Assembly (NCBI GenBank): GCA_030525795.1
Contig: JAUNEB010000003.1
Coordinates: 1,179 to 65,178, forward strand
DNA length: 64,000 nt
Source of the DNA: Aerococcaceae bacterium
Lineage (GTDB): Bacteria; Bacillota; Bacilli; Lactobacillales; Aerococcaceae
Direction: 5' to 3'
Part shown: piece after piece, positions 30,621 to 46,773 of the stretch
How the letters are laid out: each line of letters begins with the position of its first letter
How positions within the stretch are numbered: position 1 is the first letter of the stretch
Position numbers and translations under genes: made by a program
Notes under the pieces: model-generated
What the model was told of the DNA's origin: nothing
Database searches by the model: none
The model's input: the letters and a program-made list of their open reading frames with translations, nothing else

Positions 30621-31145
30621 TTAGTCTTTTTGGTTAGACGGTAGCGGCGCCAATAAGATAAACATGCTACGTCCTTCCATTTTTGGTTTTGCTTCAACGG
30701 TGGATACTTCTTTAGTATCTTCAATGAAGTCTTCCAAAACGTCTTGCCCTAACTCTTTGTGCGTAATGGCACGGCCTCTAAAGCGAATGGTCGCTTTGAC
30801 TTTGTCACCACTTTCCAAAAATTTAATCGCATGACGTAATTTAGTTTGATAATCATGGTCTTCGATTCCCGGACTTAAACGCACTTCTTTAACAGTGACA
30901 ATCTTTTGATTTTTACGCTGTTCTTTTTCTTTCTTTTGCATTTCGTAACGGTACTTGCCGTAGTCCATAATTTTTGCAACGGGTGGCTTGGCTTGTGGTG
31001 ATACTAATACTAAGTCCAATCCGAAAGATTCCGCGATGGTCAATGCGTCGTTGAGTGATTTAACACCTAATTGTTCGCCATTGTCGCCAATGACACGAAG
31101 TTCTTTTGCTCGGATGTCCTCGTTAATCATCATTTCTTTAACGAT
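30621..31145 (-). CDS. infC: Translation initiation factor IF-3 (non-canonical ATC start likely)
   Basis: [28 protein letters not shown]; GGAGGT RBS is correctly spaced to ATC at 31145. Confidence 0.96.
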
Positions 31146-31177
31146 GGGTTCCACCTCCTGGTTGATGTGCAAGATAA

Positions 31178-31556: not shown

Positions 31557-32843
31557 CTATCTAGGAGGTTTAACCCATACCTTTACTTGCTTGATCGGTG
31601 GCGATGATTCGGGTGTTTTCAATAAATACGCTGCCGCTCCTCCTGCAAGTTGATCGTGTTTTGCACATTCATGCCAATTACCAAAAAATAAATGTTTAAT
31701 TCTACCTTCAGCGTCATCGATAATCAAACGCGCAATTGTCTCTGCCCCTTGCTTTGACCAATACATACCGTTACGTTTCATGCGATTCGCTAACTTACAA
31801 TGTTGTGACTCTATAATCCCAATACCATCTTTTAAGTTCACAGGTCTTGGCTTGGTATATTCAAAATATCTCATCAACATTCTCTTTAACTGCTCGAAAA
31901 CTACCATCTTATGGCTTCCAACTACTAATGATTCGGTTGTATCCAAAATCTCACGTGCGCGTTGTTTATTACGTTTCATAATACTTGCCAATAACTTTTG
32001 TTTCAAATCGTTATTCTGGAATCGGTAAACTTCGTCTATTTGCTTCAACAAATGATACTTATCCCAATAGTGCTGATGACGGCAACCAATCCCTTTCGCA
32101 AGCTCCTTAAACACATAAGGACTATACCCCTTTCCCATATCAGCATTTGTCACCAACAACATATTTGGATGTGTTTTGTAATGACTAAGGACATACTCTA
32201 ATACCTTCTCACGTGCCTCTAAATTGCTGATCGATACAATCTCATGTTTATTTATCAAACGTTTACGTTTCTTCCCATATTCATACTCGCATCCTTCATG
32301 TATCACATAATGCGCGAGTTCTGTACGGCTTTCTTGGTGTGTGCGAGTTTTGACGCTAATCCCATCTCCCTCGATATATAAACAATCCACTTGGCGTTGA
32401 TGTTCGGGTTCTTCTATCAAATATAGATCTTGTTGCTTATACAACTCTCCTGCAAGTTTAACGGCTTTCAATACCGCATCTTTCGTGATAATCGTACCGG
32501 TCATATTTTCAACAACTTTTACCACTTTACGATATGGAATCTTAATGGCTAGTTCAGATAGCTGCATCAAAAAATAAGGTGAATGACGATTATATTTTTC
32601 AAGCCCTAATACCTCATCTAATGGATAACAATATTGGTTACCTTTCTGATAACATTTGCGGCTGAATCGCACCTCACCTAATGCAAATATGACAGTACGC
32701 TCTGCTGTTTTTACATACTTCCATCCTGCAAGTTCCCACTTACCCTTCACTTCATTTTCTAACTGCTTTAACTTTTGGATAAAGTGAGTAATGGATTGTT
32801 GTTGACATTCTTTCGTCCAACTAGATTCGTCATACTTCATCAA
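31557..32843 (-). CDS. ISLre2-family (UPF0236, Mutator-like DDE) transposase
   Basis: ERTVIFALGEVRFSR, LYIEGDG, NADMGKGY, WDKYHL, GIGIIESQH, RMKRNGMYWSKQGAE. Confidence 0.9.
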   Translation of the reverse strand: MMKYDESSWTKECQQQSITHFIQKLKQLENEVKGKWELAGWKYVKTAERTVIFALGEVRFSRKCYQKGNQYCYPLDEVLGLEKYNRHSPYFLMQLSELAIKIPYRKVVKVVENMTGTIITKDAVLKAVKLAGELYKQQDLYLIEEPEHQRQVDCLYIEGDGISVKTRTHQESRTELAHYVIHEGCEYEYGKKRKRLINKHEIVSISNLEAREKVLEYVLSHYKTHPNMLLVTNADMGKGYSPYVFKELAKGIGCRHQHYWDKYHLLKQIDEVYRFQNNDLKQKLLASIMKRNKQRAREILDTTESLVVGSHKMVVFEQLKRMLMRYFEYTKPRPVNLKDGIGIIESQHCKLANRMKRNGMYWSKQGAETIARLIIDDAEGRIKHLFFGNWHECAKHDQLAGGAAAYLLKTPESSPPIKQVKVWVKPPR

Positions 32844-33962: not shown

Positions 33963-34083
33963 TGGCGAACCCTGTTCGCCGTTGAAGCAAGTAATTTCAA
34001 AGTACATACAACACTACAAAATTTCACTTCTACAACCCTCTCCCTAAAATGAATAGCGTTATTTTTTGCCATGCTGGCAAAAA
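33963..34083 (+). repeat. 121-bp module B (GGCGAAC/GTTCGCC hairpin to palindrome copy 2), repeated at 37404-37524
   Basis: Near-identical direct repeat by inspection. Confidence 0.9.
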
Positions 34084-34159
34084 TATGAATTGATATAATT
34101 ATTAACCCCACCTCCTGCGCGGAAGTGGGGATCTTTTTACTCTTATACAGCTGTTTTTT

Positions 34160-34537: not shown

Positions 34538-35027
34538 TCACTATCCCGCCTTTAGATTTTTTTAAGATACCTACATACTTCCCTGGTAGCTCTACTCTTT
34601 CGTAAGTAGCTACGCCATGATTTTCATCATCTATTTCTGCGTAATCCGTAAAGGTTGGAGGTTCGTTTAGGTCCTGTAAGCGCGGGTTTGATGTATAACG
34701 CTTAAAAATAACATGAGGTGTTTTGTTGTAATAATAATGGTCCGAAAAAATCGCGATGTATTCGTCGTATTTATCGAGGTTACTAAAAAAATTCATGCCG
34801 TAAGATTTGTGACTCAAGATTTGAGATATAATCCCCATAAGCAAGCGAGCGATCTCTTCATCTTTTTTAGGAGCTTGCGGTAGAGGTGGTCCAAAAAAAT
34901 CTTTTGCCTCTTCGCTCATACCCTCATAGTCTTCAAAATATTCTTTTCCGTCAAAGCCGTTAGTTAGCTCTACTTCAAATCCTAATATTTTTAATTGCTC
35001 TTTTAAGTTGTCAATTAATTTTTTCAT
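34530..35027 (-). CDS. Hypothetical acidic cargo protein
   Basis: AGAGGTAATC RBS module shared with three other genes. Confidence 0.75.
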   Translation of the reverse strand: MKKLIDNLKEQLKILGFEVELTNGFDGKEYFEDYEGMSEEAKDFFGPPLPQAPKKDEEIARLLMGIISQILSHKSYGMNFFSNLDKYDEYIAIFSDHYYYNKTPHVIFKRYTSNPRLQDLNEPPTFTDYAEIDDENHGVATYERVELPGKYVGILKKSKGGIVNE

Positions 35028-35128
35028 TTTGATTACCTCTTTCTGTTTTTGTATCTTCTACCTGTCTTTATTACAACATAAGGTTTGCACAAATTTTGCT
35101 TGTCCCATATTTTTATCCTTCTAAAAAT

Positions 35129-35802: not shown

Positions 35803-35894
35803 CAAACCATCCTCTTATATCGTAGGTTTAACACTACGTCAAGTTAAACCTACGTTTTAGTGAGGTAAATCTCCTAATAATGAGCTTACGCTTA

Positions 35895-36199
35895 TTTTTG
35901 CCATGCTGGCAAAAATCTCCTCCAATCGCTCGCCAAGTCTTCGATGCTTTGAAACCGTAACTGATATTGACTCGTCAAATCACGGTTTCTAAACCCTCGT
36001 GCGACTTGTCAGCGATTGGCGGCGGTCACGTTACCTAAAGGTAACGTCCCTTTCGACGTCTAACACAATTCGCCCCGTTTCGCAAGGGTAAACATGCAGT
36101 GCTGCCTAAGCTCCTATGTCGCTAAGGCGCACTAGCCCTTGTCTAAACGTGGCGAACCGCGTTCGCCGTTGAAGTAAGCCAGCCGCGATGCGTCTGGAA
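35895..36199 (+). repeat. 305-bp structured repeat A, copy 1 (starts with palindrome copy 3)
   Basis: Near-identical to 37149-37428, 39349-39653 and 40392-40696; nested inverted repeats. Confidence 0.95.
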
Positions 36200-36289
36200 C
36201 TTTATCAAAAGGAGTGATAACAATGAACACCTCATAGACTGAAATCGAAAAGCATAGCCAACTAACATAAACATAAAGGAGTAACTAAC

Positions 36290-36652
36290 ATGGGATTAGA
36301 CCAATACATTTTTACTAGAAACAATAAAGAAGATGACCCTACTGTGTGGCAATCGTTTAGAAAGGTCAATTGCTTACAAGGATATTTTGAAAATAACTTC
36401 AATATAGAAAATTGCGTACCGTTTTCGATTGAAAAACACATGGTAGAAGAAGTGATTGACCTCACCAATCAAGTGCTTGAAAATCCAACACTTGGAAAAG
36501 ATTTATTTCCGATACAGCTTGGCTTTTTCTACGGGAACTATGAATACAATGATTGGTATTTAGAAGATGTCACAAAAACCAATACAGCCTTTAAGCGATT
36601 ATTGGAAGTTTTTGATACATTCGCAACAGTTGAATATTATTGTTGGTGGTAA
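36290..36652 (+). CDS. Conserved phage/ICE hypothetical protein (MGLD...RKVN...GFFYG...YYCWW type)
   Basis: AAAGGAG RBS; motif pattern recurrent in mobile-element proteins. Confidence 0.8.
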   Translation: MGLDQYIFTRNNKEDDPTVWQSFRKVNCLQGYFENNFNIENCVPFSIEKHMVEEVIDLTNQVLENPTLGKDLFPIQLGFFYGNYEYNDWYLEDVTKTNTAFKRLLEVFDTFATVEYYCWW

Positions 36653-36706
36653 ATAAATACACTCCCCCTTAATTAAGGGGGAGCATTAAAGAAAGGAACT
36701 CAACAC

Positions 36707-37105
36707 ATGACAAAAAAATATTATGACGAATTTAGCCGATTGACCGTCGAAAAAATGGCTCAAAGCATCTCTGAAATGACCTATGCACACAATCAAACAC
36801 AAGTGCCAACCTCTCATTACAAAAAATTACTACAAGCAAATGTCATTGAACTATTAGCACAAGATAACGTAGTACAGTCTTTATTATTAAACGCGATTTT
36901 GAGCCAACTTCATGCCCTACAAAAAGAAAGTCCAGAACTATTTTTCAAAGCACTTGTCTGTTTTGATATGGGTGTTAAGTCCGATAAAATCAATCAACAG
37001 GTATTAGATAACTTGGAACGCGCATGGCAAGTACACAAGTCAACAAAACAACTATTGACTGATAGTATCCGAGCAACCTACGAAACTCGAATTATTCCTA
37101 AGTGA
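36707..37105 (+). CDS. Hypothetical ICE protein
   Basis: AAAGGA RBS; followed by a terminator at 37113-37150. Confidence 0.8.
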   Translation: MTKKYYDEFSRLTVEKMAQSISEMTYAHNQTQVPTSHYKKLLQANVIELLAQDNVVQSLLLNAILSQLHALQKESPELFFKALVCFDMGVKSDKINQQVLDNLERAWQVHKSTKQLLTDSIRATYETRIIPK

Positions 37106-37148
37106 TATGACAACACAACCGCTTGAATGCCCACAGCGGTTGTGTTAT

Positions 37149-37428
37149 TTTTTGCCATGCTGGCAAAAATCTCCCCCAATCGCTTGCCAAGTCTTCGATG
37201 CTTTGAAACCGTAACTGATATTGACTCGTCAAATCACGGTTTCTAAACCCTCGTGCGACTTGTCAGCGATTGGCGGCGGTCACGTTACCTAAAGGTAACG
37301 TCCCTTTCGACGTCTAACACAATTCGCCCCGTTTCGCAAGGGTAAACATGCAGTGCTGCCTAAGCTCCTATGTCGCTAAGGCGCACTAGCCCTTGTCTAA
37401 ACGTGGCGAACCGTGTTCGCCGTTGAAG
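37149..37428 (+). repeat. Repeat A copy 2 (280 bp, no downstream gene; runs into module B)
   Basis: Direct sequence identity with the other copies. Confidence 0.95.
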
Positions 37429-37524
37429 CAAGTAATTTCAAAGTACATATAACACTACAAAATATTACTTCTACAACCCTCTCCCTAAAATGAATAGCAT
37501 TATTTTTTGCCATGCTGGCAAAAA
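37404..37524 (+). repeat. Module B copy 2, ending in palindrome copy 5
   Basis: Matches 33963-34083. Confidence 0.9.
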
Positions 37525-37586
37525 TATATGAATTTAGACATTCGTAACCCCTACCTCCTGCTGTGCATGGAAGTAGGGGTTATGAG

Positions 37587-38024
37587 TTATAGTTGGGTAT
37601 ATCTGCTTTCTAAAGCCTCCGTTATAATCATGCGTATCGGTTTGCCTGTCTCGGACTTTTCCTTCTCCACTTTATCCGCAAGCACCGTCGGAATCTGCAA
37701 ATGAATATTTGTCATCCCGTCTTCATCGCTGCTGCCGAATTCCTTCTCGCACTCAACGACTTTCAGCTTTTCTTCCGCCCATTTTCTTGCCTCATCAAAA
37801 GTCAAGGGCATAATCTTCTCGCCTGGACCGCGCATATCGTTGTAAGTTCCTGCATACTTAGATAACCCGCCACCCTTACCGTGGATAAAGTATTCACCCG
37901 TGCGTTTTTTGTATAGCGTTTCGGTGTAAAACGCAAAAGCATTCACGGGATAATCGGCTTTGTAAGTGCCAATTTCTTTTGCGGTAGTCGTGTCATAAAC
38001 TTTGTTTTGAATAATTTTTTTCAT
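37587..38024 (-). CDS. Mobile-element protein with probable C-terminal ribbon-helix-helix
   Basis: MKKIIQNKVYDTTTAKEIG...ETLYKKRTGEYF; C-terminal TNIHLQIPTVLADKVEKE...IITEALE. Confidence 0.75.
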   Translation of the reverse strand: MKKIIQNKVYDTTTAKEIGTYKADYPVNAFAFYTETLYKKRTGEYFIHGKGGGLSKYAGTYNDMRGPGEKIMPLTFDEARKWAEEKLKVVECEKEFGSSDEDGMTNIHLQIPTVLADKVEKEKSETGKPIRMIITEALESRYTQL

Positions 38025-38049
38025 AGTTAATTTTCTCCTTTTACATTTT

Positions 38050-38496
38050 TCAACTGTATCTTTTCTCTTCAATCCAATACTTAGCGCTCGTGTTTTGAAA
38101 CTCTTTTTCCCACTTATCTTGTACCCAGTCGATAAGAGCTTTTTCTTTCAATTTTCTGTACGCTACATATACTTCTTTGTTAGCACGACGAAACTCGCGT
38201 GCCGTATCCTTATCTTCCGGTGTTCTCCCCAAATGAAAATCGGAATTATTTCTCTCTAATTCTTCGTTCCAAACAACTGCATAGATTTCTTCATATTTTT
38301 CTTTCTCATCATCTCTAACGATAAACCATCTAGCGTTGCTTAAAGTGTTGATCTCTTCTAACGTTAACTTTTCTCCACTTAGTTTTTTTTCAGATAAAGC
38401 TACGAACACTTCTAGCTTCTTAACATACGTGTTTCTAATATCTTGCGCCCATTTGACTTGTTTTTCGCTTCCTTGCAACTCTACTAAATTCATCAT
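38050..38496 (-). CDS. Hypothetical cargo protein (LQGSEKQVKWAQDIR...SAKYWIE type)
   Basis: Shared promoter/RBS module. Confidence 0.8.
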   Translation of the reverse strand: MMNLVELQGSEKQVKWAQDIRNTYVKKLEVFVALSEKKLSGEKLTLEEINTLSNARWFIVRDDEKEKYEEIYAVVWNEELERNNSDFHLGRTPEDKDTAREFRRANKEVYVAYRKLKEKALIDWVQDKWEKEFQNTSAKYWIEEKRYS

Positions 38497-38538
38497 GTTG
38501 ATTACCTCTTTGTTTTTTATTATCTCTTAACTGTCTTA

Positions 38539-38567
38539 ATTTTATCATAGAGTTTGTACAAAGTCAA
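38539..38567 (-). promoter_or_regulatory. Promoter with TTTGTACAAA operator
   Basis: TTGACT-17 bp-(TGa)TAAAAT. Confidence 0.7.
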
Positions 38568-38664
38568 GTTTTTTGCAAAAAAAGTTGCTCTCTTTATAAA
38601 ATAATTTTTTCTCTCCCCCTTACGTCCTTATGAAACAAAAAAAGCAACCTCGCGGCTGCTTAAA

Positions 38665-39201
38665 TCATTCGTTAGGCAAGTAGTATGCGACCATGCGGTT
38701 GAAAAAGTCCTCTCTTTTTTGTTTAAGTTCGTCAATAGCTTCTGTAATGCTGACATATCCTTTTTTAAGCGATTCATCTTTACAAGATTCAAAATATTGA
38801 TTCAAGATTTCTTCTGCGCTATGGCGAGCATAAAATTCCAAATTGCTCTCTGTCTCTGATAAAGCGTTGTATTTTTTTTGCATGCTCTTGTCAAAGTAGT
38901 CATATACAACGTCTAAAATTTTATCAAAGCAATATTCGTAGTGGTCCAAATTTTTAACGGTCAACACTTCGTTAAAATACTTGATGTTTCCATCGCATCT
39001 GCGATCAATTACGAGACTGTAGCTATTGTAACGCCATAGGGTTAAGTTAACCCCGTAAAAATTTAGAAAGTTATCTAAAACAAAGTCAATCTTAAAATGT
39101 TTCTTGATATATTCGTAGGTTAGTAATGTATCAACGTCCGCAATTGCTTCAATCTCACCTAAAATGCTTAAAATGATTTGGATAGTTTGTTGATGTATCA
39201 T
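38665..39201 (-). CDS. Hypothetical cargo protein
   Basis: Shared promoter/RBS module; own terminator at 38636-38661. Confidence 0.75.
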   Translation of the reverse strand: MIHQQTIQIILSILGEIEAIADVDTLLTYEYIKKHFKIDFVLDNFLNFYGVNLTLWRYNSYSLVIDRRCDGNIKYFNEVLTVKNLDHYEYCFDKILDVVYDYFDKSMQKKYNALSETESNLEFYARHSAEEILNQYFESCKDESLKKGYVSITEAIDELKQKREDFFNRMVAYYLPNE

Positions 39202-39243
39202 GCTGATTACCTCTTTCTTTTTTATTATCTCTTAACTGTCTTT

Positions 39244-39272
39244 ATTATAGCATAGAGTTTGTACAAAATCAA
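39244..39272 (-). promoter_or_regulatory. Promoter with TTTGTACAAA operator
   Basis: TTGATT-17 bp-(TGc)TATAAT. Confidence 0.7.
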
Positions 39273-39348
39273 GTGTTTTCTTATTTTTTTTTTGCCTTTT
39301 CAGTGAAGAACATAATTAAACCAATCTCCACCTCATAGATGTGTTTCT

Positions 39349-39653
39349 TTTTTGCCATGCTGGCAAAAATCTCCCCCAATCGCTGGCCAAGTCTTCGATG
39401 CTTTGAAACCGTAAACGATATTGACTCGTCAAATCACGGTTTCTAAACCCTCGCGCGACTTGTCAGCGATTGGAGGCGGTCACGTTACCTAAAGGTAACG
39501 CCCCTTTCGACGTCTAACACAATTCGCCCCGTTTCGCAAGGGTAAACATGCAGTGCTGCCTAAGCTCCTATGTCGCTAAGGCGCACTAGCCCTTGTCTAA
39601 ACGTGACGAACCGCGTTCGCCGTTGAAGTAAGCCAGCCGCGATGCGACTGGAA
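39349..39653 (+). repeat. Repeat A copy 3
   Basis: Direct identity with a few substitutions. Confidence 0.95.
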
Positions 39654-39678
39654 AATAAATAGAAAAGAGGAACTCACT

Positions 39679-40110
39679 ATGAAAAATATCAAACAAATTA
39701 CTAACGCACTTTATTTTGTTGAACCAACTAAACTCACACGAGAATATGCAATTAAAGTATTAATCGAAACTTTTGAAGACTACGACGGGCGTATTTGCGA
39801 CCTACACATTGACATATTCGACTATACCCGTAAATTCATCTTCTACGCTGAAGCAGAAGCAGAACTTTACGCGTATAACGTTTTTGACGCGATTGCCGAC
39901 ATCCAAGAATATGAAGAAGAACACTACGGAAAAATCTGCACCGATTTATCCAACTCTTGCGACATCGCAAACATGATTTTCTACATCATCTTCTACAAAC
40001 TCATCGGGGAACTTAACAGCATTCAAAATAACTGGGACAAAAAAATAACCGACGAAATACGACAAGAGGTTTTGACCGAATTATACGATTTACAAGAATT
40101 AGTAGCATAA
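39679..40110 (+). CDS. Acidic phage-like hypothetical protein
   Basis: AAAGAGG RBS right after repeat A; D/E-rich. Confidence 0.8.
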   Translation: MKNIKQITNALYFVEPTKLTREYAIKVLIETFEDYDGRICDLHIDIFDYTRKFIFYAEAEAELYAYNVFDAIADIQEYEEEHYGKICTDLSNSCDIANMIFYIIFYKLIGELNSIQNNWDKKITDEIRQEVLTELYDLQELVA

Positions 40111-40129
40111 AGAAAGTGAGTGAATCCCC

Positions 40130-40357
40130 TTGAAACAACAAAACATCTACGTTATTTATACATGCGACGCTTGGAAGTCCTACGACTCCATGCGCCTACA
40201 CGCAATCGCTCGCAACGAAAAAACATTAATGCGTATTATTAAGCAGATGCTCCGTGACGGCTGTGTTAAATTTCAAAATTCGTTAGATAATCTAAACATG
40301 GACACCATTCATACATTGGACTATTGCGCTGTTCATCAAGAATTGTTATATGGATAA
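40130..40357 (+). CDS. Small hypothetical protein (YTCDAWKS motif)
   Basis: TTG start; followed by a terminator at 40367-40396. Confidence 0.65.
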   Translation: MKQQNIYVIYTCDAWKSYDSMRLHAIARNEKTLMRIIKQMLRDGCVKFQNSLDNLNMDTIHTLDYCAVHQELLYG

Positions 40358-40391
40358 TATACCTTGACACCCTTTATCACGGGTGTTTTAT

Positions 40392-40696
40392 TTTTTGCCA
40401 TGCTGGCAAAAATCTGCCCCAATCGCTCGCCAAGTCTTCGATGCTTTGAAACCGTAACTGATATTGACTCGTCAAATCACGGTTTCTAAACCCTCGTGCG
40501 ACTTGTCAGCGATTGGCGGCGGTCACGTTACCTAAAGGTAACGTCCCTTTCGACGTCTAACACAATTCGCCCCGTTTCGCAAGGGTAAACATGCAGTGCT
40601 GCCTAAGCTCCTATGTCGCTAAGGCGCACTAGCCCTTGTCTAAACGTGGCGAACCGCGTTCGCCGTTGAAGTAAGCCAGCCGCGATGCGTCTGGAA
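40392..40696 (+). repeat. Repeat A copy 4
   Basis: Direct identity with copy 1. Confidence 0.95.
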
Positions 40697-40724
40697 AATA
40701 AATCCTATGAAAGAGGTTATCAAA

Positions 40725-41003
40725 ATGAATTACTACACATTGAATGCTGCGATAGAATACGCCCAAAGCTCAACCCCCGAAATCGTGAAATCCTTCAAAA
40801 TCACAAACATCATCCCCTTGGACTTTAACCACATGGAAGGTCAAAACTATCAAATCAACTTGAAAGTCATCACAACCCCTAAATACAAAAATAAAATCGT
40901 TAAAATTCTTACAAATTCCACCTATTTAGACGACTATTCAGATGAGACTCAGTTTTTACCAACTCAGTTAGAAGAACACTTAAATTATTTGCTGTGTAAT
41001 TAA
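40725..41003 (+). CDS. Hypothetical cargo protein
   Basis: AAAGAGGT RBS before ATG 40725. Confidence 0.7.
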   Translation: MNYYTLNAAIEYAQSSTPEIVKSFKITNIIPLDFNHMEGQNYQINLKVITTPKYKNKIVKILTNSTYLDDYSDETQFLPTQLEEHLNYLLCN

Positions 41004-41021
41004 ATTAAAAAGAAAGAAGGA

Positions 41022-41258
41022 ATGAATATGACAATTCAACAACTCACTCAAAGCCCACTACTAACCGAAATTAGCCAACAACTCACCGTAGGTGACCGAT
41101 TGTATCTAGTTGCTGAAGGGAATGCGTTACGCTTAGAAATCAACGCGAAACCCGCTTCCAATGCACTCGAAATTTTATTCCTAACCATTACCCAAACACC
41201 TGAAATCATTCAGCACTTACTCAAACAAGCGCTATACGTCGCGGAACTTACCTTATAA
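41022..41258 (+). CDS. Hypothetical cargo protein
   Basis: AGAAGGA RBS; ends at the terminator. Confidence 0.65.
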   Translation: MNMTIQQLTQSPLLTEISQQLTVGDRLYLVAEGNALRLEINAKPASNALEILFLTITQTPEIIQHLLKQALYVAELTL

Positions 41259-41307: not shown

Positions 41308-43272
41308 TCATAAAGTAGCGCTATGCTCCAAATGTAATGAGGGCTTAGCGCGTTGTTGCTTTAACTGAGTTAATTGTTGTTGATAGTGCTGATACTCTCT
41401 AAATCCTGCCAATTCCTCTAACCAGGTTGCACGTTGAGGGGTATAAGTTTGAGTCACAACTTGCTTAGTTGCCAATGCGTCCCCCAACTCTGCTCGATGC
41501 ACACCGTCTGTTTGACAATTGACGACGCGCTCAATCGAATGACGCTGTAAATAAGCATCAATTTTGGCGGTCAACTGCGGCGTTTCCATGTCTGGTGAGC
41601 GACTGATCACCACCGCATCTTTTAACCCTCGATGTAAACTTAAAAATGCTAGAGCGGATTGCGGGTTATCGACGACATAAACAGACTTTGGTTGTCCAAT
41701 CGTAAAAATAAACCCTTCTTGTCGGTTGCTACCTGGTATCGATTGGTTTGTCCCTTCCTTCGATACCGTTTCTGCCCCAACAGCTTGCCCCTGCTTCGAC
41801 CAGACAAACATTAAATCTTCAGACGATTCAACCTGGCGTAACCACCCTTTTTTCGCAAATAACGCGACCACTTCTGGATCATATCCGTATTGCTTGCTGA
41901 CGGTGGAAATTGATTCAGGAGTCAAACGCTGACTGCTCGATTGAATCGTTGATTCAATCGTTGGTGTCGTCATTGCCTGTTCTTGCCAATGCAAGCGCTC
42001 CAATGCAACAGGTTGCTTCAACAAATCATTCCAATCCTTATGGACGACTTCGCCCACAAATACCCCTTCAGCCAAACTCCGTTTCACGTGCTTCATTTCC
42101 CACGCGGAATAATCCAAGTCACGTAATAATCGATTAAACTCTTGCCCTGGCGTATCGCGTAATTGTTGTGCCAAACGCGCAACACCTAACTCAATCCCCT
42201 CGTAAAACAAGCGATCCTGATGTTTAGCGTTACCAATATAAGGACGCTCGACTAAATACACTGCCGCTGCTTGGTGAAACGGAACGTCATAGGTGGTGGA
42301 ATATTCCTTCAGTTGCGCCACTGCTTCAGGTGTCAACACGTTTTGATGTGGAATATTCGGCTGAATTTGAATTGGGGAGTTTTCCGCCGTTTCAAAAAAG
42401 TGTTCTAAAAATTGGATTCCCGCATGATCGTTATCCGTACACAAGTACAAGGTGACGTCGCGCGTGCCACGCTCACTCTCTTGACTCAACACGTTATAGG
42501 CGGTTTGAGGTTTGACCCCTTCTAGCGAGAGCAGCCGACAGTTATTTAACGTGTCCTTATGTAACGTCCAATAACTCAATAAATCGATCGCTGCTTCAAA
42601 CGCATAAATCGCCTCGACGCGTTCCCCCAATCGAACACTAAAGCCGTGATCTTTTTTCGATGCCGTTTTGATGTGCTTCGATGACTGCCCTACTTTAGGC
42701 GGCTTCGTCAATTGTTGTGTTGCGCCAACGATGTCTTGAATTTGGTTAGGCGGTCTGCCGTCTTCCGTCCAATTAAAGATTACGTTGTAATGACGATCCT
42801 GGATAATGTATTTGTCGTCAAATAATCGCCGAACAATTCCCTTATCAATCCCGCGTGTTTCTGTTAAATACTTGTAGGCGGTTGTATTGTATTTAGCTTC
42901 CTGGTAATCATACACGAATGCTTTTTCTTCTACAACGGTTTGTTGCGGCTGGTAGTCTTCCCCCGCAAATTCCAAAATCATTTGAACCGCTTCTTGGAAT
43001 TTGACGCCTTCGATGTATTGGATAAAGTTAATCAAATTGCCATGCGCATTCGGATTGCTGCCTAAATAAGCATTATGATAAAACGTGTTTTGCTTACGGT
43101 TAATGATCAGCGAGTCATGCCCGTCGTAACGCAATTTTGGGTAATTACTATCAGGCTGTAACAGCGTCCCAATCCCTTTAGCTTGGATATAATCAATGAT
43201 TGATACCTGACTAGCTAAATCAATTTGTTGTTGCGTAAATCGCTTACCTGTTGGTTTTTCAGTCACCGCCAT
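41308..43272 (-). CDS. DUF3991/toprim domain primase-like protein of conjugative elements
   Basis: HDSLII, GNLINFIQ, YLTETRGID, FEAAIDLLSY, LCTDNDHAG, KDWNDLL. Confidence 0.8.
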   Translation of the reverse strand: MAVTEKPTGKRFTQQQIDLASQVSIIDYIQAKGIGTLLQPDSNYPKLRYDGHDSLIINRKQNTFYHNAYLGSNPNAHGNLINFIQYIEGVKFQEAVQMILEFAGEDYQPQQTVVEEKAFVYDYQEAKYNTTAYKYLTETRGIDKGIVRRLFDDKYIIQDRHYNVIFNWTEDGRPPNQIQDIVGATQQLTKPPKVGQSSKHIKTASKKDHGFSVRLGERVEAIYAFEAAIDLLSYWTLHKDTLNNCRLLSLEGVKPQTAYNVLSQESERGTRDVTLYLCTDNDHAGIQFLEHFFETAENSPIQIQPNIPHQNVLTPEAVAQLKEYSTTYDVPFHQAAAVYLVERPYIGNAKHQDRLFYEGIELGVARLAQQLRDTPGQEFNRLLRDLDYSAWEMKHVKRSLAEGVFVGEVVHKDWNDLLKQPVALERLHWQEQAMTTPTIESTIQSSSQRLTPESISTVSKQYGYDPEVVALFAKKGWLRQVESSEDLMFVWSKQGQAVGAETVSKEGTNQSIPGSNRQEGFIFTIGQPKSVYVVDNPQSALAFLSLHRGLKDAVVISRSPDMETPQLTAKIDAYLQRHSIERVVNCQTDGVHRAELGDALATKQVVTQTYTPQRATWLEELAGFREYQHYQQQLTQLKQQRAKPSLHLEHSATL

Positions 43273-43322: not shown

Positions 43323-44603
43323 TTAGTGTTCTAACTGTAAATTCTGTTGATACTCACGCTGCACATTCATCCGTTCATGCGCAAATTCATTCAAATACTG
43401 TTGCTTGGTTTTTCTCAAATTAAACTTCATTTTTTCCAAAGTCGCAACCGTCATCTGTGTGACTTTTTCCGACGTACTCCTGGTGTGACGTGAGGGCTGC
43501 CATTCCTTCAACGGATGACGCTCATTGCGAGAGTGCCTGCTGCCTCCTGTTTTTTCGAATTGTTTTAATTGTCGCAACAATTCATTGCCTAAAGCAGCAC
43601 GTAACTCCGTCAACTTGTTGTCGTAATAATGATTTTGAGGTTTGCCGTAAACGTTAGAATACGTATCATGGCTGTCACGTAACACGCGCTTATAATCTTC
43701 ATACGGTTGTTGCGCATGATCGTAGACTAAGCGCAACGTGATTGAGTCAATCCGATCGCGAAAAGGCTGCATCGCATTGTTGTTGTACCGCCATAATTTG
43801 CGATTACCAGGTAAGTCGTGTAACAACTGTTCTAAATCCCGCAACAAATACTTTTCCTTAAAAACGTCTAATCCCTTCAGCGACGCATTCAACACTTCAC
43901 GCTGCAATTCACTTTGACGTGCAAGTTCTGCATCACGGTTCAATAGATGATTGATAAATTTACTTTTCATCCGTGTTAAATGTTTGAATTTTGCTTTGGC
44001 TTTGCGTTGTCCACGATATTTGCCTGTCTCAATGATTGGGCGGCTTGACTCTCGTTCAGCCATCGCCACGTGAACGTGAATGTTATCCGTATTGTAATGG
44101 ATGGCTGCCGTCCAAATGAACGTGTCATTAAACCCCATTTGCTGCTTAAAATCCGCAACGGCTTTTTGCGTCGCTTCTTTAATCGGTGCTGCATTCAACG
44201 TCCCTTCAGGCGACAAGAACCCTTTATCTTTCAAAAATTGGTTATCAAAACTAAACACTTGCCGCCACATCGGCGAGCCATTTGCTTGTGCCTGGTTAAA
44301 CGCTTGTTTCAGTTGGTTAATGTCTTGAGTGGTGAGGGTATGCGTTTTGTCGTTAAATACATTGTCCGTCTTCAAACGACTGCCAATATAATTCAACGTG
44401 CGCTCCCCACTCTCATAACGGGCTTTATTTTCTTCCAACCCGACGTCTAATGCGCGGTCAACTTTCGCATCCTCACGTTCCATATAATTCACATAATCCG
44501 AATACTGAACGGGACGCTGATGCCCGTTATGCGTCAGTGTATCGTTCCATAACTTAAAGTCCGTCATCAAGACAATGTGCGGCGTACTAGAAGGCTTCGT
44601 CAT
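43323..44603 (-). CDS. Relaxase, MOBL/MobP2 type
   Basis: DYVNYMER, MWRQVFSFDNQFL, WTAAIHYNTDNIHVHVA (HUH motif). Confidence 0.88.
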   Translation of the reverse strand: MTKPSSTPHIVLMTDFKLWNDTLTHNGHQRPVQYSDYVNYMEREDAKVDRALDVGLEENKARYESGERTLNYIGSRLKTDNVFNDKTHTLTTQDINQLKQAFNQAQANGSPMWRQVFSFDNQFLKDKGFLSPEGTLNAAPIKEATQKAVADFKQQMGFNDTFIWTAAIHYNTDNIHVHVAMAERESSRPIIETGKYRGQRKAKAKFKHLTRMKSKFINHLLNRDAELARQSELQREVLNASLKGLDVFKEKYLLRDLEQLLHDLPGNRKLWRYNNNAMQPFRDRIDSITLRLVYDHAQQPYEDYKRVLRDSHDTYSNVYGKPQNHYYDNKLTELRAALGNELLRQLKQFEKTGGSRHSRNERHPLKEWQPSRHTRSTSEKVTQMTVATLEKMKFNLRKTKQQYLNEFAHERMNVQREYQQNLQLEH

Positions 44604-45559: not shown

Positions 45560-45870
45560 CTTCCGCCCTTTTGGGCGGTGTTTCTTTGAACGATTTCCGC
45601 CGACGGCGGAAATTTCACAAACTTACCCATTTTTGGGTAAGTTTGAAGCAAGAGCATAAGGGGAACTGCTAGCACGTACCGTTCTAGTCCTTGCAGTGCA
45701 AGGAGTTCCCGATATATACAAATCTTTGTGATAGTGCCACTTTTAGCACTCTGATTGATTGGTATTTTTATACATGGTGCTAGTTTTAGCACCGTCTTTT
45801 TTGCCTATTTGTCTTCCCAAAACAAACATGGTGCTGTTTTTGGCACTAATAGTGCTAAATCTAGCACCTA
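45560..45870. other. Putative origin of transfer (oriT)
   Basis: Intergenic region upstream of aux-relaxase; three hairpins, minus-strand CCCCTTATGCTCTT core (45650-45663), four 18-bp RGTGCY-N6-RGCACY palindromes. Confidence 0.7.
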
Positions 45871-46773
45871 TCATTCCAAATGAATGGCGTCTTCTGTTAA
45901 ACCAAATTGTGTCCGATAGGACGCTAATTTTTGTTGAAGTAATTGTTGTTTTTCAGTTGCTTCTTGAAGACGTGAGGCTTCAAATTGAATCTGTTGTTCG
46001 ACCCGTTGCATGGACTGATAAACAGTTCGCTGCATATCCAATGTGTCTTCTTTTTCCTTCGATGTTTGATAGGTTTTGTGTTGTTCCAGTTCGGCTAAAC
46101 GTGTTTGAAAATCTTGAATTTCTTGTTGATAGCTGGCAATCGTTTCAGGAATCGTTGTCTCAATCAATGCTTGTTGAACCGATAAATCATACTCAATTGA
46201 ACGCAACGTCGCCGCTTCTTGTGTGAATAATGCGTTCGGGTTTAATGCTAAAAAAGGTGCGTTGGACGACTGTCGATGCAAGGTAAATTCTGCCGCTCTG
46301 GCACGACTCCCTGCCGTAATGTGTAACCGCAAACTCGACCAAGAAGGTGGGAGTTGTTGAAGAACAATCTCATAATAATCATGTTCTCCTTGATACACTT
46401 GAACGTCTACTTGGTCTTTGGTTGCACCTAAAAAAGTAGGACGAATGGATAACGTAACGGACTGTTCTGCAGGCAACGTACGCTCGTCTAACAACAATCG
46501 CAAGTACACCGTATCTTCTGTTTCGTTCATCCGTTTTGAATCAATCCACAACGATACACCGCCACTGGTTAGCACGTTTGACAACACATATTCTTCTGCG
46601 GTAGCACTCGGACGTAACAGCCCACCTACCAAAAAGAGACTAAGAATCATGCCTAAAAATACCGAAGACACAACATAATACCGCCGAATAATCGGATATT
46701 TTTCAGGACGTTTCTCGCTTAATGTCGTTGATTTTTTGTGTCGGCGTTGACGTAAATGTTCCAAAAAAATCAT
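45871..46773 (-). CDS. Conjugation-region membrane protein with C-terminal coiled coil
   Basis: Single N-terminal TM helix; lies within the tra operon. Confidence 0.65.
   Translation of the reverse strand: MIFLEHLRQRRHKKSTTLSEKRPEKYPIIRRYYVVSSVFLGMILSLFLVGGLLRPSATAEEYVLSNVLTSGGVSLWIDSKRMNETEDTVYLRLLLDERTLPAEQSVTLSIRPTFLGATKDQVDVQVYQGEHDYYEIVLQQLPPSWSSLRLHITAGSRARAAEFTLHRQSSNAPFLALNPNALFTQEAATLRSIEYDLSVQQALIETTIPETIASYQQEIQDFQTRLAELEQHKTYQTSKEKEDTLDMQRTVYQSMQRVEQQIQFEASRLQEATEKQQLLQQKLASYRTQFGLTEDAIHLE

Follow-up and report, generated by a model that had tools for sequence, protein, structure and literature searches.

The four direct repeats of ~300 nt described here are a counterpart of the EGeRS1 element of pLS20 and form a separate sequence family of the same kind. 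They are best explained, at a probability of roughly 0.4, as promoter-less, GC-rich cis modules which precede an RBS within a TnGBS-like MobL ICE and would be fired by single-stranded DNA. The genes behind them form small accessory operons, probably serving establishment or anti-defence. We infer an establishment role, activation by single-stranded DNA and the polarity of the strand that is transferred.

The repeat array and its host element

A direct-repeat search of the window (the whole 64,000-nt stretch of DNA that was analysed) and subsequent alignment yielded four direct copies with 93–97% identity, all on the plus strand, and the original prediction of four near-identical copies in the same orientation is thereby borne out. 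The GC content of the repeats is ~52% (0.51–0.53) compared with ~36% in the element and 0.34–0.42 in the flanks. Copy 1 (35895–36203; repeat-search match 35890–36189; 117.9 bits with the covariance model R1) is composed of a 21-nt palindrome (35895–35915), the domain-1 rod, a small hairpin, and the conserved core together with the 3' hairpin (36050–36203). Copy 2 (37149–37435; repeat-search match 37144–37443), located by repeat search and alignment, is severed at its 3' end after GTTGAAGCAAGT at ~37435; what follows is another repeat module and no gene. In copy 3 (39349–39657; repeat-search match 39344–39643; 125.8 bits with R1) the domain-1 rod spans ~39373–39478, the small hairpin ~39483–39500 and the core rod 39504–39636, with the 3' hairpin extending to 39657. 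Copy 4 occupies 40392–40700 (repeat-search match 40387–40686; 124 bits with R1). Furthermore, a fifth copy is left only as a plus-strand remnant of its 3' end at 33966–33999, consisting of the GGCGAAC/GTTCGCC hairpin and GTTGAAGCAAGT. The truncated copy 2 and this remnant share identical junctions and the cassettes have clearly been reshuffled, in keeping with the earlier picture of an expandable cassette array.

The copies had also been described as beginning at the palindrome. This is correct for its position in copy 1, but the palindrome is not exclusive to the repeats: the window contains 12 exact occurrences, where 0 are expected, and at least seven more follow along the contig beyond it, in both orientations. 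A role of the palindrome as a co-oriented RNA element was rejected because further along the contig its orientation is independent of the gene strand. The palindrome may resemble the inverted repeat at the nick site of pLS20.

The repeats reside in a TnGBS-like conjugative element that carries an ISLre2 transposase and a MobL relaxase and is inserted next to infC. The ISLre2-family DDE transposase (31557–32843, minus strand) marks the left end of the element and adjoins the chromosomal infC (30621–31172). On the other side of the array, a DUF3991-Toprim primase (41308–43272) and the MobL relaxase (43323–44603) are encoded on the minus strand, convergent to the cassettes. As had been proposed, the repeats head different small operons of a conjugative element, all on the plus strand. 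Copy 1 precedes two small genes of unknown function (36290–37105), one of which matches phrog_7971; copy 3 precedes an operon (39679–40357) whose first gene matches phrog_10208, likewise of unknown function; and copy 4 is followed by two small genes without any family match (40707–41258). Searches of the cargo genes against Pfam and NCBIfam returned no family, and the only PHROGs matched are of unknown function. The description of three copies as being followed at once by an RBS and a gene requires correction for copy 1, which is separated from its gene at 36290 by ~90 nt containing a 4-codon mini-ORF.

A covarying core and the resemblance to EGeRS1

Outside this element, conservation is confined to the 3' half of the repeat (~150 nt), and the 5' half, made up of the palindrome and domain 1, is an addition peculiar to this Aerococcaceae element that is unrelated to EGeRS1. 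One to three copies of the core are found in MobL elements of several related genera of the same family, such as Hutsoniella and Fundicoccus, and of Phocicoccus. Of 139 other family genomes searched, 6 contain it, in addition to Phocicoccus, and the core model is absent from 131 sampled genomes of eight other families of the same order. In the relatives it lies directly 5' of an RBS in every case, often with a RadC-like gene next, which is the most frequent cargo behind the core; in Hutsoniella and in the relative denoted G023 one copy is placed immediately 5' of the relaxase gene.

The core forms a long rod with an invariant CAAGGG/CCCTTG helix (P1), an asymmetric internal loop and a variable apical helix, followed by a single-stranded GAAGTAAGCC tail and a small 3' hairpin. 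Because RNAalifold recovered P1 alone from a plain MAFFT alignment, the structure was taken from per-sequence folds. Covariation, a proposed check of the stems, backs 31 of the 46 core pairs, a value reached by none of 500 shuffles and compared with 11–22 in slid controls. The view of the repeat as a repeated, highly structured cis element is thus supported.

A search of the repeats against the covariance models of Rfam 15 gave no match at the gathering score nor at E≤1, blastn against PLSDB gave none either, and exact-motif scans returned only five genome stretches, two metagenome stretches and no viral stretch. At the sequence level the family is therefore as unrecognised as originally stated. 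As a kind of element, however, it has a described precedent in EGeRS1.

The parallels with EGeRS1, for which a pLS20-like record served as comparison sequence, are numerous. EGeRS1 also belongs to an element with a MobL relaxase, occurs in 4–5 copies clustered beyond the conjugation operon, and each copy sits directly 5' of an RBS that belongs to a small, variable operon oriented against the conjugation genes (Val-Calvo et al. 2021, PMC8708921). It shares with the repeats a GC content of ~52% within an element of 36–38% GC, many inverted repeats and very stable predicted folds, a conserved portion that comprises the last ~150–330 nt, an invariant CAAGGG...CCCTTG closing helix, an excess of C over G, an antisense strand that folds better, and, for the repeats as predicted in silico, the lack of a sigma-A promoter. 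Position, copy number, GC content, skew and the predicted lack of a promoter uphold the suggested grouping with upstream elements of the pLS20 type. Nevertheless, the two are distinct families. The authors of EGeRS1 define its family by >60% nucleotide identity to the pLS20 element (PMC8708921), whereas blastn of EGeRS1 and the repeats in both directions found no match. Reciprocal covariance-model matches are marginal (15–23 bits) and fall at matching 3' ends, with 22.7 bits for R1 on EGeRS1 and 20.3 bits for the model R2 on the Hutsoniella core. In contrast to the two hairpins within the closing helix of EGeRS1, the core described here forms one rod capped by one apical helix, and its host is a chromosomal ICE with a DDE transposase from the Aerococcaceae group rather than a Bacillus plasmid.

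Folding strand, putative oriT and possible mode of activation

All stems named in the original prediction were recovered in the minimum-energy folds, and these folds depict a strand asymmetry. The plus strand of the repeat folds with -120 kcal/mol (z = -6.6 versus shuffled sequence) and the minus strand with -148 kcal/mol (z = -9.4). The template (antisense) strand is calculated to be more stable by 12–27 kcal/mol in this family and by 20–38 kcal/mol in pLS20. With DNA parameters its fold is superior in all seven cores, by z-score in five of the seven, and the G023 copies show uninterrupted stems on the template strand only. According to the per-sequence folds, the mismatches of the sense fold are mostly A-C and turn into G-U on the opposite strand; G-U and A-C counts from the model-fitted alignment were discarded as unreliable because the register is lost in distant members. 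Both families have a GC skew of -0.12, compared with values near 0 or positive in the downstream genes. A predicted preference for folding of the template strand, common to this family and EGeRS1, is a new observation.

The promoter scan detected no plus-strand sigma-70-like site in or just 5' of any copy, and strong sites of this type at the neighbouring minus-strand genes. The anticipated lack of an ordinary promoter is therefore supported; the TTGACT-17-TAAACC match noted earlier does exist but scores below the threshold of the scan. For the family members, neither our inspection of the folds nor the scan placed a conserved -35/-10 pair in the arms of the folded template strand.

A putative oriT is located at 45640–45900 on the minus strand, 5' of three small auxiliary genes, and comprises the conserved MobL core CCCTTATGCTCTT (45650–45662), a CCTTGC-act-GCAAGG hairpin (45689–45703) and GTGCTA/AGCAC repeats. 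In the window, in Hutsoniella, in the relative G005 and in pLS20, the cassettes are situated on the relaxase side of this core and are directed at it. This orientation rule, by which the cassettes always point to the conserved MobL oriT core, is likewise new, and leading-region genes with Frpo obey the same rule towards oriT (PMC11541004). Activation by single-stranded DNA is favoured because the template strand folds better and because the cassettes are directed at oriT. Accepting the class, we put this mechanism at somewhat below even odds. The cassettes would be silent on double-stranded DNA; when the element becomes single-stranded in transfer, the template strand (minus in the window) would adopt the rod, and RNA polymerase or the primase of the element could initiate there, as at Frpo of the F plasmid. 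The outcome would be a brief burst of mRNA, or of primer, starting near the GTAAGCC tail. The likeness to Frpo and ssi of F and ColIb-P9 (Masai and Arai 1997; Samuel et al. 2024, PMC11541004) is one of architecture: repeated hairpin elements of ~300 nt precede leading-region genes directed at oriT, and the folded strand is the template, free of a promoter on double-stranded DNA. Unlike these, the repeats have no recognisable -35/-10 in the stem and belong to a Gram-positive host, and the transfer of their template strand, which we infer, is contradicted by the pLS20 nick data. The nick of pLS20 is the sole experimentally mapped MobL nick, and by it the strand transferred would be the sense strand of the cassettes. 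Consequently, the authors of EGeRS1 call a single-strand promoter highly unlikely (PMC8708921), and the single-strand model is in conflict with this published nick strand.

A close rival, which we regard as possible though less probable, treats the module as the 5' UTR of each cassette, i.e. as an insulator or attenuator whose block would depend on Rho loading onto the C-rich RNA, on processing or on a conditional fold, and would be lifted by a factor available only at about the time of transfer. It agrees with the published nick strand and would fit the constant distance to the RBS, the conserved single-stranded tail, the A-rich spacer and the rut-site-like excess of C over G in the sense strand. 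EGeRS1-B of pLS20 stops read-through on double-stranded DNA in its native orientation only (PMC8708921); this block is an effect at the RNA level or of DNA orientation, for which a single-strand promoter does not account. GGCGAA can pair alternatively with the upstream TTCGCC or the downstream GTTCGCC, and the same plasmids carry known RNA attenuators built on long imperfect stems. One of these, the zipper-type cATT of the pLS20 conjugation operons (PMC13401043), shares with the repeats a long imperfect leader stem, an alternative pairing at the foot of that stem and the kind of element. In contrast to cATT, the repeats precede cargo operons instead of the conjugation operon, lack a downstream intrinsic terminator, offering only the alternative GGCGAAC/GTTCGCC hairpin, and are asymmetric in favour of the antisense strand. 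An antisense strand that folds better in every member, with A-C mismatches becoming G-U, is unexpected for an RNA selected in the sense strand. Furthermore, the scan revealed no promoter that could transcribe such a leader, no helix is followed by the U-tract of an intrinsic terminator and no hairpin plus T-run lies past the rod, and Rfam is without a match even at E≤1.

It is unlikely that the module derives from oriT, with the MobL relaxosome reading rod and tail as a pseudo-oriT for cassette exchange or for additional initiation or termination, and gene control being secondary. P1 (CCCTTG/CAAGGG) does recur as the duplex of the hairpin that adjoins the oriT core in Hutsoniella, in G005 and in the window, and the invariant minus-strand GCATGTTTACCCTTG is similar to the region of the oriT core both in the pWBG749 family and in the present element. 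An exact TTGAAGYAAG is present in each of the five copies and also next to the oriT core, in every case on the plus strand; copy 2 and the remnant both break off immediately after it, and the core copies in front of the relaxase genes of G023 and Hutsoniella would fit as well. These similarities, however, span 6–13 nt and were noticed post hoc, the complete core CCCTTATGCTCTT is missing from the repeats, the oriT hairpin of pLS20 does not match the EGeRS1 helix, Hutsoniella possesses a separate canonical oriT core, and an oriT would not be expected to be tightly coupled to an RBS.

Still less probable is a mere single-strand origin or primosome site, in which the rods would prime the complementary strand and have no part in transcription. 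Stable strand-specific hairpins, the adjoining primase gene and a minus-strand TAGCGA near the apex in four lineages, a string akin to CS-6 of ssoA, are in line with this. Priming does not need four to five RBS-tied copies, though, and membership in ssoA was rejected, as R1 reached at best 11.6 bits (E 0.4) against the ssoA plasmids pE194 and pT181. A selfish MITE-like repeat or integron-like attC array devoid of regulatory function would explain the cassette-like shuffling, the truncated copy and the remnant, but is very improbable given copies confined to the element, in a single orientation and all before genes, a covarying core kept in other genera at the same position relative to the RBS, no terminal inverted repeats or target duplications seen, and no match to a known family.

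Implications for establishment genes

The repeats bear on how Gram-positive conjugative elements express their anti-defence and establishment genes early and briefly, and EGeRS1 has so far been described rather than explained in its mechanism. A second family, unrelated to EGeRS1 in sequence and of the same architecture, now provides a covarying 150-nt core, a strand preference and an orientation rule towards oriT, which make the folding strand, the RNA start and the transferred strand directly testable. In a more far-reaching and doubtful extension of single-strand activation, the rods would be the first Gram-positive single-strand promoters or primers, MobL elements including pLS20 would transfer the relaxase-sense strand nicked at CCCTTATGCTCTT with the relaxase side leading, and modules of the EGeRS1 type would fire from the incoming strand. 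The repeat family also flags uncharacterised small genes as candidate anti-defence cargo, and the fold of the repeats hints at how establishment genes may be switched on during DNA transfer.

Four repeats and the element that carries them

The four direct copies of the repeat, each about 300 nt long and 93–97% identical, all lie on the plus strand (35890–36189, 37144–37443, 39344–39643 and 40387–40686). Repeat search and alignment within the window thus agree with the original prediction of near-identical copies in one orientation, each starting with the palindrome TTTTTGCCATGCTGGCAAAAA. Copy 2 breaks off after GTTGAAGCAAGT, at about 37435, where another repeat module follows. The same junction recurs at 33966–33999, where just the final hairpin of the repeat is left, and marks a fifth, remnant copy. 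The module that follows, a second repeat of about 120 nt (34000–34118 and 37441–37561, 95% identical) ending in the palindrome and followed by a terminator-like hairpin, stands where copy 2 and the remnant would have their gene, suggesting that cassettes were lost or exchanged. In the organism's own genome, whose assembly is 78% complete, full copies are confined to this locus.

The 21-nt palindrome is a module separate from the repeats and much more frequent, with 12 exact copies in the window versus none expected and at least seven more beyond it on the contig; both orientations occur. Its occurrences in the element, at least 19 (window 32910–61651; stretch L048, 1088–9018), are all intergenic. 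Loop polarity is plus at about 32.9–40.4 kb, minus at 52–61.6 kb and mostly plus again farther along the contig, with a switch close to oriT. It looks like an element-wide operator or replication-related site and resembles the inverted repeat of the pLS20 nick site.

Window bases 1 to about 31200, including infC (30621–31172), are chromosomal, and the remainder is the conjugative element. An ISLre2-family DDE transposase (31557–32843, family match 228 bits) is located at the element end adjoining infC, and the window ORFs that were scanned include no tyrosine or serine recombinase, which suggests a TnGBS-like ICE moving by DDE transposition. Further genes encode a MobL relaxase (43323–44603, minus strand, family match 238 bits), three small proteins upstream of it and a DUF3991-Toprim primase; the long conjugation operon runs on the minus strand. 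For the plus-strand genes behind the repeats, PHROGs of unknown function are the sole family assignments. A promoter scan gave no sigma-70-like site on the plus strand within any copy or immediately ahead of it, in keeping with the earlier view that only a weak promoter match is present. The interleaved minus-strand genes, unrelated to each other, are driven by a common strong promoter-leader-RBS module of 83 nt and TGnTATAAT type (35023–35105, 38492–38574 and 39197–39279), so the cargo of the two strands is under two different control modules.

Structure and distribution of the conserved core

Outside the window, recurrence is limited to the 3′ half of the repeat. This core is found in 6 of the 139 other genomes of the family and in none of the 131 sampled genomes from eight other families of the order. 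Copies were located in Hutsoniella sourekii (two), the relative G023 (three), Fundicoccus (one), genome G007 (one), Phocicoccus (two and one) and on two metagenome contigs. G082 and G005, the latter of the window's own genus, have weaker variants. An RBS and a start codon always lie within about 30 nt after the core, and the gene most commonly found there encodes a RadC-like JAB protein. In G023 (L045, 9691–9963) and Hutsoniella (L047, 4351–4620) the start of the MobL relaxase gene lies roughly 270 nt from a divergent RadC-like gene, and one core takes up most of this gap.

The core forms a rod. Its outer helices are variable; they are followed by an invariant CAAGGG/CCCTTG helix, by an asymmetric loop in which TAAACATGC faces AG, and by a variable apical helix. 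Beyond the rod, GAAGTAAGCC is single-stranded, and a small, variable hairpin precedes an A-rich spacer. All stems listed in the original prediction are present in the minimum-energy fold, and the covariation proposed as their check is found: 31 of the 46 pairs in the model-fitted alignment change on both sides, a number reached in 0 of 500 shuffles, with slid controls at 11–22. Covariation was also computed on a MAFFT alignment. Rfam yields no match to the repeat even at E ≤ 1, in line with the first impression of an unrecognised family. The repeat is a real, non-trivial element.

Relation to EGeRS1 and to the oriT core

Plasmid pLS20 carries five copies, 420–750 bp long, of the type 1 establishment gene regulatory sequence, EGeRS1 (Val-Calvo et al., PMC8708921). 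The copies share a conserved 3′ part of about 325 nt, have 51% GC versus 38% for the plasmid and are rich in inverted repeats; each directly precedes the RBS of an establishment operon, e.g. ardC. They lacked sigma-A promoter activity and blocked read-through in their native orientation (PMC8708921). The map of a pLS20-like record is the same as that of the window: conjugation operon, relaxase and primase share one strand, and repeat-headed operons lie beyond the conjugation genes on the other. Both families have a GC content of 0.51–0.53 and a GC skew of −0.11 to −0.15, with downstream genes near zero or positive, and both are closed by a CAAGGG...CCCTTG helix that is invariant in either alignment. 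blastn gave no match between repeats and EGeRS1 in either direction; the covariance model of the core scores 22.7 bits on EGeRS1 3′ ends, and an EGeRS1-built model 20.3 bits on the Hutsoniella core with no match on the window copies. The repeats are therefore classed with EGeRS1 by kind of element but as a separate sequence family, homology at the sequence level not being established.

Five elements share a 13-nt string, CCCTTATGCTCTT, which precedes the auxiliary and relaxase genes on the relaxase-sense strand: the window (45650–45662, minus strand), Hutsoniella, G005, a pLS20-like plasmid and a pWBG749-family staphylococcal plasmid. Its positions outside the window are L027, 27438; L056, 856; L047, 8578; and L034, 862. 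Conservation ahead of MobL relaxase genes extends across Bacillus, Staphylococcus and the Aerococcaceae group, and a hairpin precedes the string by about 25 nt. In the pWBG749-family plasmid it matches, by position, the site described for that family's conserved oriT 'core sequence'. Rod-headed cassettes are located on the relaxase side of the string and face it in four elements (window, Hutsoniella, G005 and pLS20), as is the rule for leading-region genes under the control of Frpo, the F-plasmid single-strand promoter. However, the pLS20 nick was mapped about 40 nt from the string on the opposite strand (PMC5313138), so that the transferred strand is the sense strand of the cassettes, which conflicts with a Frpo-like orientation.

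Strand asymmetry and possible modes of action

The strand antisense to the cargo folds better in both families, by 12–27 kcal/mol here and 20–38 kcal/mol in pLS20. On either strand the repeat folds far more stably than shuffled sequence, and the antisense advantage (z = −9.4 on the minus versus −6.6 on the plus strand) exceeds the composition effect. When DNA parameters are used, the antisense strand has the lower minimum energy in all seven cores and the lower z-score in five. The lower stem of the G023 copies runs as an unbroken helix of about 31 bp on the antisense strand only, because the sense mismatches are A-C. Judged from these predicted folds, the asymmetry would be expected from selection acting on the template strand or an antisense RNA, and not from selection on a sense RNA.

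Readings of the repeats as ssoA, MITE or attC are unlikely. As a third possibility they may have a relaxosome-related role: the CAAGGG/CCCTTG duplex is identical to that of the oriT hairpin in three elements and TTGAAGYAAG is found beside the oriT core, both short matches, and the breakpoints of copy 2 and the remnant come after TTGAAGYAAG. The favoured reading, a template-strand hairpin, is only a little more likely than a sense-RNA leader or insulator. The template strand, single-stranded during transfer, would form this hairpin, which would start RNA synthesis as a promoter or as a primer, and the conserved tail and 5′ hairpin would be the beginning of the mRNA. Against this stand the absent −35/−10 elements, the nick strand of pLS20 and the read-through block observed on double-stranded DNA. 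A template-strand hairpin starting RNA synthesis during transfer is favoured, as it would account for the missing double-stranded promoter, the strand asymmetry, the cassette orientation and the conserved tail with its 5′ hairpin.
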